A program made the position numbers. Of a DNA stretch of 64,000 nucleotides, positions 21,001 to 36,000 are shown piece after piece. The stretch comes from Longimicrobiales bacterium (GTDB taxonomy: Bacteria; Gemmatimonadota; Gemmatimonadetes; Longimicrobiales; Gaopeijiaceae), in NCBI GenBank assembly GCA_965249725.1, contig CBDFMQ010000002.1, positions 352,001 through 416,000 of the forward strand, in the 5' to 3' direction. Positions within the stretch are counted from its first letter, which is position 1. The number at the start of each line of letters is the position of its first letter.

Positions 21001-24000
21001 GTGGCCCGCCATTGTCTGCTGGGATCCTCGCTGCGGAGGATCTGGCCTGCCCTCCGCTTCGCGACAGGAACGACCTCACTGAGCAGGAGGCCGGCTCCGG
21101 TCAGCAGCAGGCCCATGAAGACGAGCGGGACCATGAGCCGATGAAACGAGATTCCCCCGGCCTTGGCGGCCATCACTTCCCGATGCTGCGTCATGGTGTG
21201 GATCGTAAAAACCGCCGCGAGGAGCGCTGCGATGGGAAAGGACCAGGAGACGTACTCGGGAAACTGGTAGACATAGGCCAAGGCCACTTCCTTGACCGTC
21301 AGGCCGCGTTCGAAGTAGCGATCGACGTACTCGACGATGTTGCCGATGACGAAGAGCAACGGTGCGCCGATGATGAAGAGCGCGAAAATGCGCAGGAACG
21401 TCTTGGCGATGAGGAGATCTAGAATCCGAATCATGCGGGTGCTTTTCGTGGCCTCACCAGTCGCCCGAGGAAGTCGCCTATGGCGAACCACGCTTCGTCC
21501 AAGCCACCGCCCCGGTTCGCGCCCGTGGCGCGACCCATTCGGGCCGAGAGCACCAACCCCAGCGCCAGAAACGTCAGATCTGGGCCCCACATGGCCCAGA
21601 ACGGCGAGATCACTCCCTTGTCGGCCAGGTTCTCACCGCCGATCAAGCCGGCCCAATAGATGGCGAAGATCGCCACCGACACGGCGATCACCATGCCGAC
21701 TCCACCCCGCGGGAAGCGGATCGCCAGGGGCGCGCCGATCAGCACGAACACGATGCACGCGAACGAGATCGCGAACTTTTTATGGATCTCGACCCAGAAC
21801 TGGTCGACGCTGGTCTGCAGCGCGAAGATCTGGCTCTGATTCTGGCGACTGGTGAGCGCGAGCCGCCTGGTCATGTCGTCCTCGTCGACGAGGAACCCCT
21901 CACCCGCCACCGTCTCGTCCTCGGTAACCGGAGGGAGGGGGACCACCGAATATGGAGTGGGCGAGCCTTCGGGCGGACGTCCGAGTGCTTGATCGAGCAC
22001 CATGCGGGCGCGCTCGTATGAACTCTCTTGCACCCGAGCGATCTCGGCTTTCCGGTCCGCGACTTCGTCCCGCAGCATCGCGACCGACATCTCCCGATCA
22101 CTCCGCACGCTTCCACCTTGTTGACGCTCCAACTCGTCGCCCACCCCCCGCAAGGGAATGATCTGCGTATCGAACTCGGACCGATTGAACTCCCCGGACC
22201 GGTCCGCCCCGACCTCGCGGACTTCACCGTCATACAGAGTCAGATAAAGGTCGGTGCGCGCCTGATTGAACTCCATCTTGCCACTGAGCGCATAGGTGGT
22301 CCGGTGGGCATACGGGTCGCTCAAGTCGTAGATGACGACGTCGGTCATTTCGTTGGTGGTGGGGTCGATGCTGGCCGCTTGCAGGTAGACCGTGCCGGAC
22401 CGGGATTCCGTCTGGATATTGTTGATGACCCGTTCCCGGAGTTCTAGCGTCGGGCTTTTCTTGCCCAGATCGATGATCAGGTTCTTGAGTTGATGATTGG
22501 TTTCCGGCAGGACCTGATCGTTGAAATAGAACATGACGCCGGCCAGGATTATGCCGACCCCGAGTAGGGGAGCCAGCATCGTCATCGGCTTCACCCCGCC
22601 CGCGGACATGGCGGTAATCTCGTTGGCGGCAGTAAGCTCACTGAAGGTGTAGAGTACTGAGACTAGGATAGCCATGGGGAGAGTCAGAGCGATCGTGTGC
22701 GGCAGGGAGAGCAATAGAAACTCTCCGATGACGCTCCACGGCAGACCCTTCCCGACAAGACTCTCCATCCGCTGAGCGACAGCGTTGAGGAAGAGGAGCC
22801 CGGTCAAGGCCGAAAACGCGAAGACGAACGGCCCCGCGTGAGCACGGATTAGATACCTGGTGATAATTCCCATTCGGACAACCCTACACCGTACCTCGGC
22901 ATCCGATCCAGGGCTGGCCGCCTAGTGTTGGTTTCGCGTACTGCCTTGCTGGGTCTCGCGATCGCGGTGCCTTTGTCTGGTCGCGCCGTCACGGCTCAGG
23001 CCGTCCAGGATGCGGTGCGCTGGACGCCTCCCGGACTCGAGCTGCCGGCGTTCCTCGTGGCCTTTCCCGGTCGGTCCGAGGGGGCGCCGCGTTCGGTGGG
23101 CCAACTCGGCCTCAAGCCGATGCCACCTCTGGTACCCGTGGAGTTCGTCGTACCTGATGTGGTGCAAGGCGGACCCGTACCTCAGGCTTCCCGTTGGTTG
23201 GTGGCTCCCGGACCGACGTTGATTCGGCGGCGTCTCGCGCTCCGCCGCAGGGAGTTGTTCGAACCATCGGCGCCTAGTTCTGTCCGTCGGACCGTGACGG
23301 GCGCTGCCACCGCCTCACGTCTGGCCGGAGGACTGGCGGACCTGGACGTAGAGATCGTGGGGCAGGCGGAGCTGGGTGGTGATTGGACGCGTTTTCGACC
23401 CTGCGACACACGGGTGCAGTTCTCCTGCGACCCCAGCACCCTGCCACAACTCGACCCCGACATTCAGTTCGCCGTACGCGCTCAAGGGACGATCGCTGAA
23501 CGCATCACCCTGGACGTGGACTTCGATCAGGCCCGTGAATTCTCCGCCGCCAACAACATCAACATCTTCTACGACGGAGACGACGACGACGTCCTGAAGC
23601 ACGTGGAATTGGGCGACGTCACGTTCGCGCTGCCGGCGTCGCGCTTCCTCACCGAGGGGATTCCGGCGGGTAACTTCGGCTTCCTCGCTTCGGGGCAAGT
23701 CGGCCCCTTGGAATTCGACGGTGTGTGGGCGCAGCAGCAGGGCGATCTCTCGAGACGTGAGTTCCGCCTGAGCGGGGGGCCGGGGCAGGAGAGCTTCGTG
23801 CAGGTCGACACGTTGGTCCTCGATGACGCCGACTACGTGCGGGGGCAGTTCTTCTTCCTCGTAGATCCCGAGTTCATCGATCGCAGCCCGCACATCGACG
23901 TGCTTTCGTTAGACCCGTCGGCCGGTCCGGTGGCGCTCTCTCCCGGCGCCCAGCCCATCCAGGTGTACCGCTTCGAGACGGACCCCGTCACCCGCCAGCA

Positions 24001-33000: not shown

Positions 33001-36000
33001 CTAAGGTCCTGGGCGAGGTGCTCTACGATGTTGAATCTGGGCACACGCTGGCCGACGCCATGGGGAGGCAGCCCAAGGTCTTCACCGAACTCTTCGTGAA
33101 CATGGTTGCTGCCGGTGAGGCCGGCGGTATCCTGGATACGATTCTGCTCAGGCTGGCCACGTTCCTCGAGAAGAACGACGCGCTCGTCCGGAAGATCAAG
33201 GGAGCCATGATCTACCCGGCCGTCATCTTCTCAGTGGCGGGCATGGCCATCATCATCCTTCTGATCTTCGTGATTCCCACGTTCCAGACGATGTTCGAGT
33301 CTGCCGGCATCCCGCTTCCGTTACCGACGCGGGTCGTTATCGGCATGTCGCAGTTCCTGCAGTCGTTCTGGTGGGCCTGCCTCATCGGGATCATCGGGTC
33401 TGTAGTGGCGATCCGGCAGATCTACACGACCGATGGTGGAAAGCTCTTCATCGACAGATTGATGCTGGCGTTGCCGATCCTGGGGGACCTCCAGAGGAAG
33501 GCGGCGGTCGCTCGTTTCACCCGTACTCTGGGTACGCTGGTGTCTTCAGGCGTGTCGATCCTCGAGGGACTCGAGATCACGGCCAAGACCGCCGGCAACC
33601 GGGTCATTCACGACGCCGTAATGAGCTCGCGCGCCTCGATCGCCGGAGGTGAAACGATCTCAGGGCCGCTCAAGGAGTCCGGTGTGTTCCCGCCTATGGT
33701 CGTGCAGATGATCAACGTCGGTGAGCAGACCGGAGGCCTGGACACGATGCTCACAAAGATCGCCGACTTCTACGACGACGAGGTCGACGCGGCCGTCGAG
33801 GCCCTGCTCGCTGCCATGGAGCCGATCATGATCGTGGTGCTGGGTGTGGTCGTCGGTGGCATGATTGTCGCCATGTACCTGCCGATCTTCGACATGATCA
33901 ACGCAGTGGGTTAACGAGCACGGGTTCTGGCCCCCCGGAGCGGGGCGCGCCCTGCGGGGCCGCTCGCGGTCCGGGGGGTTTTTGTTTGCGCGCTCGCTAA
34001 GCGGTGCGGCGCATGATGCTTACTCCTCTCTTCATCTTTCGGCGCGGCGCCGCACCGATTGCCCCGCAGGGCGCGCCCCGCTCCGGAGGGCTCGACCGGT
34101 GGGTTTGCTGGCGTCTGCAGACGGACGTCAATTAGCGTTCGACCGTCGCGCCCCTGCTCCTTGCTGCTAGAAGGGACACAGATGACAGACACGATCTTCG
34201 GAAAGATCGTCCGCGGAGAGATTCCTGCCGACGTGGTCTACCAGGACGAATTGGTTACTGCGTTCCGCGACGTCGATCCTCAGGCGCCGACCCATATCTT
34301 GATCGTGCCGAACAAGGGCGTGCCGACTCTCGCGGACGTGACGGATGCGGACGAGCCGGCACTGGGGAGGATGATCCGGATCGCTTCACGCCTGGCCGAG
34401 GAGGACGGCATCGATGAGGCGGGATACCGGCTCATCATCAACTGCCGAGCTCACGGCGGGCAGGAGGTGGACCATGTTCACCTTCATCTGATCGGCGGGC
34501 GTCCCCTCGGCAGGATGCTCCCGGATTGACCATCGCGGGTGGGCTCTGCCTTGCCCGGAACTAACGTGGGGACAATCTTCCTCGCTTTCACACTCTAGAT
34601 AGAGAGCGCAAGTGGAACGCTTCGAGAACTTCGTCAGCGCTGTGCGGGCCTTCGTATGGGAATGGGGCGTCCCGGCCGGCGATGGCGACATTCCCCTCGT
34701 CATCCTGGCCCTGATCGGGGTCGGCGGGTTCCTCACCCTCCGCCTCGGATTCATACAGCTCCGGCGATTCGGGCACGGTGTTGCGGTCGCCACGGGGCGA
34801 TATGACGATCCGGATGATCCGGGGGATGTCTCGCACTTCCAGGCCCTCACGACGGCGCTCTCCGCCACGGTGGGTATCGGCAACATCGCGGGGGTGGCGT
34901 TGGCCATTCACTGGGGTGGCCCCGGTGCGCTGTTCTGGATGTGGGTGACCGCCGGTCTCGGGATGGCGACCAAGTTCACCGAGGTGACGCTTGCCCAGCA
35001 CTACCGTCAGGTACATGTGGGAGCGGACGAGATGGTCGGTACCGTCTCCGGTGGCCCGATGTACTACATCGAGCACGGCTTGGGACCCAAGTGGAAGTGG
35101 ATGGGGGTCTTCTTCGCCACCGCGCTGGGGTTCACCGCGTTTCTGACGGGCAACGCCATTCAGGCGAACACGGTAGCGGATACCATCGGTACCGCCTTCG
35201 GGACCGCCCAGTGGATTACCGGTTTGGTGACCGTCTCGGTCGTGGCTGCCGTGGTCTTAGGGGGGATCGGACGCATCGGTCGTATCACGAGCATCCTGGC
35301 GCCCTTCATGGCGGCGGTCTACGTGCTCGGTGCTCTCTTGATCATCTTCATGAACCTCGGGGCTGTGGCCCCGGCGTTCGCCACCATCTTCGCCGAGGCG
35401 TTCAACCCGACGGCCGGCGTGGCCGGCACGGGTATCGGCGCCATCTTGGTGACTCTGATGTGGGGCGTGAACCGGGGTCTCTTCTCCAACGAAGCAGGGC
35501 AGGGCTCCGCTCCCATCGCACACGCTGCGGCCAAGACGGATGAACCTGTCTCTGAGGGCGTGGTGGCGCTCCTCGAGCCCTTCATCGACACCATCGTCAT
35601 CGTGACGATGACCGCACTGGTCATCATCATCACCGGAGTGTACAGCGAACGCATCCCGACGGAGATCACCTTGGCTGGCGGCGACCTCAGTTGGGTGTCC
35701 GGAGACGCTCGCGAGGGTTACGAGTCCGTGAATGCTCCTGATGAGATTCAGATTCAGAACGGGCGGCACGCGGCGGGAAGTACGATTCTCGTGGCGTGGC
35801 ACGAAGTGGCGCTGGACGAGCTCTTCACCGACGCCGGTATGACGCAGCGCTTCTCAGGCTCGGTCTTCCCCACACGCGATGAGGCCGTCGACGAGTCCGG
35901 CACTAGCCACGCGTCGTTGTACGGTATGGCCATCGAAAGCGGCGCTCCCCTTACCATGTATGCGTTCCGAAAGGGACTGTCGCCCTTGGGTGACTGGGGT

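Follow-up and report, generated by a model that had tools for sequence, protein, structure and literature searches.

What does a SprA translocon do beside the motor genes of a type IV pilus, in a genome where the motor for a type IX secretion system (T9SS) is missing? The window, a stretch of 64,000 nucleotides from a Longimicrobiales bacterium of the phylum Gemmatimonadota, contains most of the features listed in Table 1. The sprA product scored 435 bits on TIGR04189 (cut-off 200) and so passes the SprA/Sov family threshold, its PDB sequence match is to SprA only (6h3i, E 6e-26), and it shares 22% identity with Parabacteroides SprA over 872 columns. The reading frame is free of stops. A single-sequence AF2 model of residues 991-2018, made without an alignment and with the 36-strand barrel, cap and lateral opening in question, reached a pLDDT of 31.

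Table 1 Features of the sprA locus, other pilus genes in the window and two genes on contig C3. Positions are those of the window unless a contig is named.
Feature	Position	Strand	Evidence
lptG	20361-21434	-	PF03739, E 5e-58; start from our own gene caller
lptF	21431-22873	-	PF03739, E 6e-81; divergent from sprA, 51-bp gap
sprA	22925-28981	+	2018-aa homologue of the SprA/Sov translocon, full length; its signal peptide ends in A-Q
comEA-like	29045-29707	+	Two HhH regions; TIGR00426, 85.5 bits (cut-off 53); PF12836
Possible pilBTC promoter	29720-29749	+	TTGCCC-N18-TACCTT; consensus match only
pilB	29808-31472	+	Type IVa pilus extension ATPase; TIGR02538, 718.8 bits (cut-off 675.65)
pilT	31549-32658	+	Retraction ATPase; TIGR01420, 497 bits (cut-off 319)
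pilC	32712-33914	+	Platform protein; PF00482, E 2e-67; best match NF052606
pilS/pilR-like two-component pair	41896-44948	+	PF25323; sigma-54 regulator
N-methyl pilin genes	49713-50620 and 53467-53895		PF07963; downstream of the pilS/pilR-like pair
pilM-pilN-pilO-(ORF in pilP position)-pilQ	56632-61117	+	PF11104, PF05137, PF04350, PF00263 with AMIN
SprE-like lipoprotein candidate	C3:1966641-1968029		Best model PorW/SprE, E 3.8e-4, 19 bits (cut-off 250)
CTD-only protein	C3:1087723-1088160	-	146 aa; signal peptide and type A CTD, no passenger

A preliminary description of this DNA had placed sprA with comEA, pilB, pilT and pilC, divergent from lptFG, and the family scores, coordinates and strands agree with that arrangement. 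It had also made sprA the head of an operon. This remains a supposition, and a sigma-70-like site, recognized by consensus match, lies between comEA and pilB. Among 22 related loci, 6 have the motif TTGACA-N17-TAnnnT upstream of pilB, versus 1 of 88 coding windows. The promoter scan gave one site against 1.4 expected, and terminators were at chance level. On the other side, lptF adjoins sprA in 39 of 40 chosen loci of the phylum, and likewise in loci from Ignavibacteria, Chlorobiaceae and KSB1.

The PorV/PorQ-family gene and the porX gene were said to lie away from sprA, and both were found there. The former scored 93.5 bits on NF033709 (cut-off 90), and PorV was the sole match of its alignment in the PDB (E 3e-15); the porX-like gene takes its name from the position after sprA in Ignavibacteria and Chlorobi loci and from the earlier description. 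The order era-porU-porV-DUF5683-like was present in 5/5 loci of another group (f10) and porU-porV-DUF5683-like in 5/5 loci of other classes (f11/f12). In this genome and in 3/3 loci of its class, the order is era-porV without porU. By its position beside the era/porU site, the gene is the true PorV orthologue, and porU was deleted in place in this class.

Bacteroidia genomes served as positive controls for GldL, GldM and GldN; the lack of such controls had been a stated weakness of the earlier searches. No GldL or GldM passed the cut-off in 27 Gemmatimonadota genomes versus 13/13 Bacteroidia, although a very divergent motor could have escaped these searches. GldN gave the same counts (0/27 versus 13/13), and all 52 non-Bacteroidia genomes were negative for GldL/M/N. 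With the control Gld sequences as queries no match was obtained in this genome, and GldK exceeded its cut-off in the control only (one of five genomes searched). PorU was absent from 12 class genomes and present in 15/15 from other classes of the phylum. PorZ was not found in this genome or in G063, while 3/3 other-class genomes gave matches below the cut-off. Type B CTDs and PorP/SprF were not detected in this genome, with a positive control. Thus, the reported absence of GldK/L/M/N and PorU now stands with controls. ExbB-ExbD-ExbD-TonB and TolQRA sets are present in this genome; as a substitute, a Ton-type motor was rejected on gene linkage, which to sprA was seen in one Chlorobiaceae locus only.

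A further candidate component is a SprE-like lipoprotein. In its family, 21 of 29 members match the PorW/SprE model, yet more match generic TPR models, and in the PDB SprE (E 1.3e-6) stands among generic TPRs. The lipoprotein occurs in 87 of 120 SprA-positive versus 1 of 31 SprA-negative genomes. It is probably part of the translocon, though its assignment to SprE is weak.

The genome had also been described as free of CTD cargo, with the proviso that cargo signals could be missed. One had been. Pfam and TIGRFAM CTD searches at curated cut-offs were blank here, and two CTD models were blank in control genomes too, so that these searches are uninformative. In contrast, a profile of 47 cargo CTDs picked out a protein that is little more than a CTD (the CTD-only protein; E 4.8e-12), with nothing else below 0.09. 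With the same profile, no CTD fused to a passenger domain was found in this genome. The claim therefore survives for passenger-fused CTDs but not for CTDs as such. Because curated CTD models miss the CTD-only family, the system looks cargo-less. FlgD_ig-like matches in three proteins of 1035-1086 aa were rejected as CTDs: they lie inside the proteins, stopping 150-200 residues short of the end, with E of at least 0.097 against the cargo profile.

Of the 136 genomes of the class, 116 carry the CTD-only protein, and 107 of these gave exactly one match. Nine class genomes have two or three CTD matches, and some members of the class thus keep other cargo. In the other classes of the phylum, 15/15 genomes carry 22-28 CTD matches on long proteins; a CTD-only gene after selB was not seen there in 4/4 selB loci with 1.5-kb flanks.

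The AF2 model of the CTD-only protein (pLDDT 83) matched the PorU CTD best (6za2, residues 1009-1157; Z 9.7, rmsd 3.6, 106 aligned), with a small lead over generic Ig folds (Z 9.7 versus 9.3). The PorZ CTD was second in Foldseek (Z 8.0, 22% identity). A profile search of the family alignment against PDB sequences returned no CTD (best E 0.54), and the likeness to PDB CTDs comes from the fold search. In the Atlas, the protein lies in clusters at 0.98 with 39-58% PF18962 members, and the nearest long relatives of the family are type A cargo. A terminal Lys is present in 58 of 61 family rows and the A-Q cleavage motif in at least 90%, the signal peptide being judged by eye. In published work, the terminal Lys makes contact with PorV (PMC10994853). 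From the modelled Ig-like beta-sandwich, C-terminal position, terminal Lys and signal peptide, the protein is assigned to the type A CTDs. The glycine of the beta3-beta4 loop, which export of P. gingivalis RgpB requires (PMC11285876), is found in 0/61 rows. Because of this absence, the CTD-only protein may not be exported at all. The glycine motif is not conserved in mirolase (PMC11285876) either, and six PorZ-like CTDs likewise lack it. In a tree of 117 columns, which gives low resolution, the family forms its own clade (support 99/93) outside the PorU and PorZ clades; an origin from PorU or PorZ was supported neither by this tree nor by profile scores.

Loss patterns tie these components to each other. 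In the 136 class genomes, SprA and the CTD-only protein were both present in 101 and both absent in 16, with SprA alone in 4 and the CTD-only protein alone in 15; these genomes are kin, so Fisher p-values overstate the association. PorV is absent in 28 of 31 SprA-less genomes. SprA, PorV, the SprE-like lipoprotein and the CTD-only protein have been lost together. Single-protein queries gave no CTD match in 4 SprA-positive genomes and no PorV match in 16. Moreover, absence of SprA goes with decay of the CTD signal: a canonical copy was found in 2 of 10 genomes without SprA and PorV versus 35 of 37 with SprA, and a C-terminal extension in 4 of 10 versus 0 of 37. Because the gene is kept in 15 of the 31 SprA-less genomes, with 2 of 10 examined copies canonical, it can outlast the pore.

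We propose, with a probability of roughly 0.6, that the module is a reduced, motor-less T9SS translocon (SprA, PorV and probably the SprE-like protein) that serves one client consisting of a tag only, and that the pilus genes are inherited neighbours. The reading draws on gene content, synteny, co-loss, decay and fold, from which we infer binding, export and the purpose of the client. The ancestor would have been a cargo-rich system without GldKLMN, of the kind that the other Gemmatimonadota classes and many related phyla still have. The class ancestor would then have lost porU, porZ and nearly all tagged cargo, keeping one dedicated client with a signal peptide and a type A CTD. This client may leave the cytoplasm by Sec export, enter the SprA cavity and bind the PorV loops, a step that in Flavobacterium was shown to need no energy. 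Because PorU is absent, it would stay uncut. It may end either outside on PorV, uncut on the surface, or as a resident partner in the pore. Two further points stand against this reading. For a client of 12 kDa, a pore of 36 strands is costly, and release of the bound CTD without GldLM has no explanation; in Flavobacterium, the GldLM motor is reported to be required for freeing cargo from SprA (PMC10994853).

The closest known assembly is the T9SS Extended Translocon of Flavobacterium johnsoniae, which consists of SprA, PorV, SprE, SkpA and PPI (PDB 6H3I and 8GL8; PMC10994853). Common to both are SprA at full length, PorV (an orthologue here) and a type A CTD that ends in Lys, and the SprE-like TPR lipoprotein is a probable counterpart of SprE. 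Unlike F. johnsoniae, no GldK/L/M/N, PorU, PorZ, PorP/SprF or type B CTD was found here, SprA is about 400 aa shorter and the sole CTD has no passenger. SprA and PorV without a motor have been published for Ignavibacterium and Melioribacter (PMC11705866), possible T9SSs for Chlorobi, Fibrobacteres and Ignavibacteriae (PMC5837995), and Gemmatimonadetes are listed as possible holders (PMC11285876). We observed SprA and PorV without GldLMN in 15/15 genomes of other Gemmatimonadota classes and in 25 related-lineage entries (one duplicate); PorU exceeded its cut-off in 14/15 and 18/25, respectively, and in genome G012 the CTD-like matches number at least 86. PorU and many cargos are mostly retained there, whereas this class lost both and keeps one tag-only protein. 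Our literature search yielded no publication dealing with Gemmatimonadota SprA or with a CTD-only protein of that phylum. The motor-less SprA/PorV pair is already published for Ignavibacteria, and a class-wide single-client state was not found described. A whole phylum has SprA but no GldLM, from genomes with at least 86 tagged proteins to a class with one passenger-less tag.

PorU, PorZ and PorA of Porphyromonas gingivalis keep an uncleaved CTD on large functional domains. The CTD here would likewise not be removed, and PorU and PorZ CTDs are its best structural matches; in contrast to these proteins, the family lacks large functional domains. A Parabacteroides distasonis protein (WP_005861068.1, 106 aa), whose annotation names a T9SS type A sorting domain, shares with the Gemmatimonadota family the architecture of signal peptide and CTD. 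It stands beside a full cargo set in Bacteroidia. A Parabacteroides plasmid-collection record has sprA and lacks gldM.

Another reading, which we consider doubtful, makes the CTD-only protein a detachable adaptor or gate. It would pick up untagged cargo in the periplasm and take it in trans through SprA-PorV, or it would block the pore from one round to the next. If this were true, secretion of large proteins would continue in the class with no CTD attached to them. The tag is encoded by a single conserved free gene (42-63% identity within the own family and the class among the top rows listed), its separate clade would suit such a role, and the full-size pore and the SprE-like protein are retained. 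The protein also has two insertions relative to cargo CTDs, besides the missing glycine, and 818 longer relatives include no close fused form except one 266-aa record. However, the insertions are not the same from family to family, neither a cargo nor a binding partner nor an energy source was found, and we know of no precedent for a free CTD adaptor. A wider version, also unlikely, holds that in Gemmatimonadetes the tag became a free-standing adaptor or gate for untagged cargo via motor-less SprA-PorV-SprE, and that the cargo-rich form without GldKLMN is ancestral, the gliding motor being a Bacteroidia addition.

It is improbable that the module is a dispensable leftover in the course of being lost, with inertia as the main reason why SprA, PorV and the CTD-only protein are still there. 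In favour of this, cargo, PorU and PorZ have gone already, and 31 of the 136 class genomes, spread over several families, have no sprA, with clean deletion in 17 of 20 loci examined. However, in nearly all SprA-positive genomes listed the frame is open over roughly 2000 aa or longer, SprA retains conserved blocks at 25-50% overall identity, and the CTD motifs decay only after SprA loss. Together, these observations indicate selection while the pore is present.

The pilus genes had been taken to hint at the use of SprA. That SprA is powered by, or works with, PilB/PilT/PilC is very unlikely. Myxococcus and Geobacter have the type IVa order pilB-pilT-pilC-pilS-pilR with pilMNOPQ. The same set (PilB, PilT, PilC, PilM/N/O, secretin PilQ and pilins) lies entirely inside the window, and its sole oddity is the position beside sprA. 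PilQ is the only secretin found in the genome; the pilus has an alignment complex and a secretin of its own, besides a possible promoter of its own upstream of pilB. In favour of a link, pilB was inside the stretch examined around sprA in 23 of 40 chosen phylum loci, cargo-rich f11/f12 included, and pilT-pilC still stand beside sprA in four own-family loci after local loss of pilB. Against it, losses are independent in both directions. Because 11 of 15 own-family genomes without a PilB orthologue carry another PilB/GspE-type ATPase, the clean test is given by G057, G129 and G109; of these, G057 and G129, both closed, lack PilC, any PilB/GspE-type ATPase and secretin, yet SprA, PorV and the CTD-only protein are all retained. 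Conversely, PilB is kept in all 16 genomes without SprA, PorV and CTD, and pilB and pilC in 20/20 SprA-less loci. In the f10 genomes, which do have SprA and cargo, no pil genes adjoin sprA, and pilB/T/C stand beside sprA in 0/54 loci not labelled as Gemmatimonad lineages. A pilus-motor requirement for SprA is therefore largely refuted. Cargo-rich genomes from other classes share the order sprA-M28-comEA-pilBTC, which is therefore older than the loss of cargo, and the link between sprA and the pilus appears to be inherited gene order. With motor, hub ring, sortase and passenger-bearing cargo missing, this is not a classic Bacteroidota T9SS, as the earlier description held; the pilus motor genes do not point to its use, and comEA-pilBTC are inherited neighbours belonging to a separate type IVa pilus. 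It is hardly credible that SprA was turned into a channel for DNA entry, ComEA serving as periplasmic receptor: comEA does follow sprA, with or without an M28 gene, in the phylum and, among the 54 other loci, in 5 (WOR-3, Hydrothermia and Ignavibacteria are represented), but it stays after sprA deletion in 15 of 20 SprA-less loci, is absent from three own-family sprA loci, and the genes that track SprA are those for PorV, the CTD-only protein and the SprE-like lipoprotein.

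The genome of the window (G000) is 4.16 Mb and 95.8% complete. The first gene of the pilus-associated cluster scores 435 bits with TIGR04189 (cut-off, 200), and SprA is its only kind of PDB match. This sprA is followed by comEA, pilB, pilT and pilC with gaps of 63, 100, 76 and 53 bp, respectively; on the opposite strand, lptF begins at a distance of 51 bp. Thus, the layout in the preliminary description is real. Its missing motor was then searched with Bacteroidia genomes as positive controls, which had been lacking. GldL, GldM and GldN were above the cut-offs in 13/13 Bacteroidia genomes versus 0/52 other handles, namely 27 Gemmatimonadota and 25 from related lineages (Ignavibacteria, Chlorobiaceae, KSB1, Marinimicrobia, WOR-3, TA06 and others; many are drafts of unstated completeness, and three are Bacteroidota-labelled genomes with Ignavibacteria-like gene order); one handle is a duplicate (G153 = G022). 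GldL was matched below the cut-off in five of the 52 (E 2e-4 to 4e-3). GldK exceeded its cut-off in one of five genomes searched, the control, and Bacteroidia GldK/L/M sequences gave one weak match in G000 (E 5e-4) and otherwise nothing. The missing motor therefore stands as well.

Coordinates of the features (short coordinates count inside the window, G000:C3:352001-416000; L-numbers are fetched loci)
Feature	Location	Strand	Description
sprA	22925-28981		2018-aa ORF
CTD-only protein	G000:C3:1087723-1088160	(-)	146 residues: signal peptide, short linker, type A CTD
TPR lipoprotein	G000:C3:1966641-1968029		best NCBIfam model PorW/SprE, E 3.8e-4, far below cut-off
PorV orthologue	G000:C3:821217
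DUF5683-like gene	G000:C3:822397-823146; L004:10398-11144		directly after porV
Second PorV/PorQ-family barrel	G000:C1:736836-737702; L005:9837-10700		48.9 bits, best specific model PorQ
M28 gene of G000	G000:C3:1982475-1983395		moved away from sprA
M28 peptidase lipoprotein gene after sprA	L040:7936-8865
Proteins with internal FlgD/CTD-like Ig domain	G000:C1:641030-644284, C1:769437-772694, C3:1171430-1174534, C3:2691296-2694856, C1:382824-385973		secreted, 1035-1187 aa
CTD protein after sprA-M28	L098:17517-19193; also L106, L121, L122, L127, L094		540-580 aa
Parabacteroides distasonis signal-peptide-plus-CTD protein	L076:37740-38060		106 aa, adjoins ribonuclease Z
tRNA array	G000:C3:1903222-1906030		19 genes, one strand, within 3 kb

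The preliminary description had found no C-terminal sorting domain (CTD), and this claim falls. A profile of 47 cargo CTDs from other lineages, from which CTD-only family members were excluded, matched one G000 protein without passenger at E 4.8e-12 and nothing else under 0.09; the protein scores under the curated CTD cut-offs. Its model (pLDDT 83) is closest to the PorU CTD (Z 9.7, rmsd 3.6, 106 aligned); the PorZ CTD also matches (Z 8.0, 22% identity), and other Ig folds lie near the top at Z 9.3. At 0.98, its neighbours in the Atlas are clusters from Gemmatimonadota in which 39-58% of the members carry PF18962, and the closest longer relatives are ordinary type A cargo. A tree of 65 rows, of low resolution, recovers the CTD-only family as a single clade (99/93) that is separate from those of PorU and PorZ. 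Of 61 CTD-only rows, 58 keep the terminal Lys, and none has the loop glycine that characterizes cargo CTDs. The upstream neighbour of the CTD-only gene was selB in 28 of the 30 top-ranked loci. CTD matches were found in 131/151 genomes of the phylum. Within the class of G000, Gemmatimonadetes, 116/136 genomes have a match, and 107 of these have exactly one; the other classes (15/15) have 22-28 per genome (26 candidates scored), mostly on long proteins. The architecture is not unique, because Parabacteroides has a small protein annotated with a similar one. Many CTD-only proteins of families f4 and f5 (L215-L226) have a cysteine pair linking the two insertions, pointing to a surface braced by a disulfide. 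Five G000 proteins with an internal Ig domain and a further C-terminal region are the nearest CTD relatives in that genome; they were not counted as cargo. The CTD protein behind sprA-M28 in Marinimicrobia-type loci clusters with the PorZ-like CTDs and, like the CTD-only family, has no loop glycine.

The gene sets fall into three tiers. Bacteroidia possess SprA, PorU and GldLMN. Other Gemmatimonadota classes possess SprA (15/15) and PorU (15/15 at E 1e-111 or better, 14 above the cut-off) and many cargos, with 86 CTD-like matches in one of these genomes, G012, and no GldLMN; among the 25 related handles, PorU is above the cut-off in 18. In the class of G000, SprA is present in 105/136 genomes and PorU in 0/12. 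Loci of f10, a family of another class, have the order era-porU-porV-DUF5683-like (5/5), and those of f11 and f12, likewise from other classes, have porU-porV-DUF5683-like (5/5). G000 and 3/3 loci of its class have era-porV, an arrangement in which porU has visibly been deleted from its former position. This identifies the adjoining G000 gene as the PorV orthologue; PorV is the only PDB match of its alignment (E 3e-15). PorZ, PorP/SprF and type B CTDs were not found in G000. The DUF5683-like gene, which lies behind porV in 12 of 20 loci compared, through all classes of the phylum, is a candidate further component. No CTD gene was seen near the second PorV/PorQ-family barrel; f10 genomes have 7-14 such barrels.

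Among the 136 genomes of the class, whose kinship inflates all contrasts of co-loss and decay given here, SprA and the CTD-only protein are both present in 101 and both absent in 16, with SprA alone in 4 and the CTD alone in 15. PorV is also absent in 28 of 31 SprA-less genomes; in 16 SprA-positive genomes it was not matched with a single query sequence. The 16 genomes that lack SprA, PorV and the CTD-only protein come from at least six genera in four families. Two genomes are unpublished (G093, in this group, and G053, in the tallies), and none of the conclusions depends on one of them alone. The pilB locus of 20 SprA-less genomes contained no SprA fragment, and lptF directly adjoins the M28 gene in 15 of them and nearly so in 2 more. 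Therefore, the SprA losses are real. Among the copies with listed places, which are not a random sample, the [YF]PNP motif with terminal Lys/Arg at the usual distance is kept in 2/10 copies from genomes without SprA and PorV versus 35/37 with SprA, and C-terminal extensions occur in 4/10 versus 0/37. Judged from these sequences, the CTD-only gene decays once SprA and PorV are gone. A TPR lipoprotein shows a similar distribution: its profile matches at least 87/120 SprA-positive genomes (11 candidates scored per genome; misses in families f1 and f5 are not absences) versus 1/31 SprA-less genomes, the latter a 210-contig draft that keeps PorV. Its assignment as SprE is suggestive only.

In passages of PMC10994853, the type A CTD in Flavobacterium loads into the SprA cavity on PorV loops without energy, its terminal Lys touches PorV, and release requires SprE and GldLM. 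Passages of PMC11285876 state that some CTDs stay uncleaved and that the loop glycine is required in RgpB, the motif not being conserved in mirolase. By analogy, the CTD-only protein would be exported by Sec, dock on PorV inside SprA and remain uncut because PorU is absent. It would then depart bound to PorV and become a small surface protein, or remain as a resident gate. Given the missing motor and the Flavobacterium release result, it is predicted to remain if no other source of energy takes over; the ExbB-ExbD-ExbD-TonB and TolQRA sets of G000 are candidate substitutes. In a bolder, less probable alternative, the protein would be a free adaptor carrying untagged cargo through the pore, which would account for keeping a full-size pore. 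We favour a motor-less, sortase-less type 9 translocon that, as far as can be seen, is kept across most of the class for one CTD-only protein. According to passages of earlier papers, T9SS is found only in Bacteroidetes (PMC4793230), possible systems occur in Chlorobi, Fibrobacteres and Ignavibacteriae (PMC5837995), Gemmatimonadetes may have T9SS (PMC11285876), Kryptonia have 811 TIGR04183 proteins (PMC4737851), and the T9SS proteins of Melioribacter and Ignavibacterium are limited to PorV, SprA and Plug (PMC11705866). Thus, motor-less SprA is already in print. We found no literature on the CTD-only protein, the in-place porU loss or the pattern of co-loss, part of which may be covered in subscription papers such as PMC5446621.

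The pilus is a neighbour, and the functional link proposed in the preliminary description is not retained. The window also contains pilS/R-like genes, pilins and pilM-N-O-Q with secretin, so the pilus is complete without SprA. Two closed genomes rated 100% complete (G057 and G129) keep SprA, PorV and the CTD protein and lack PilC, a PilB/GspE-type ATPase and secretin, and 20/20 SprA-less loci keep pilB and pilC. In the family of G000, Gaopeijiaceae, the PilB orthologue is missing in 15/16 genomes, 14 of which keep SprA; because a different ATPase of the PilB/GspE type is encoded in 11 of these 15, the clear-cut cases are G057, G129 and the draft genome G109. Upstream of pilB, a sigma-70-like site is present in the window and in 6/22 related loci, versus 1/88 coding windows, so that a single sprA-to-pilC transcript is not established. 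Of 40 sprA loci chosen across families (in 5 of them, a contig edge cuts the stretch short), 39 have lptF next to sprA, 23 include pilB in the stretch and 22 have an M28 peptidase gene after sprA. Cargo-rich genomes of f11/f12 already have the order sprA-M28-comEA-pilB-pilT-pilC, and in f10 no pil genes accompany sprA. In 54 loci without a Gemmatimonad* label, many of which are short, pilB/T/C never lie beside sprA; its neighbours include lptF in 10, M28 in 9, comEA in 5, the porX-like gene in 11 and ruvA in 19.

In many lineages, the gene after sprA encodes the M28 lipoprotein, which by analogy with a passage of PMC5837995 may be a glutaminyl cyclase for signal-peptide-exposed Gln. Many Gaopeijiaceae genomes (L048, L049, L050, L053) have lost pilB beside sprA and kept pilT; their pilC matches only from about residue 50-60 onward, a different PilB/GspE-type ATPase lies elsewhere, and secretin was present in 2/2 tested. 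Their pilus may run on a replacement extension ATPase. In L108 (Gemmatimonadales), sprA, pilB, pilC and pilS are in pieces, probably through long-read frameshift errors.
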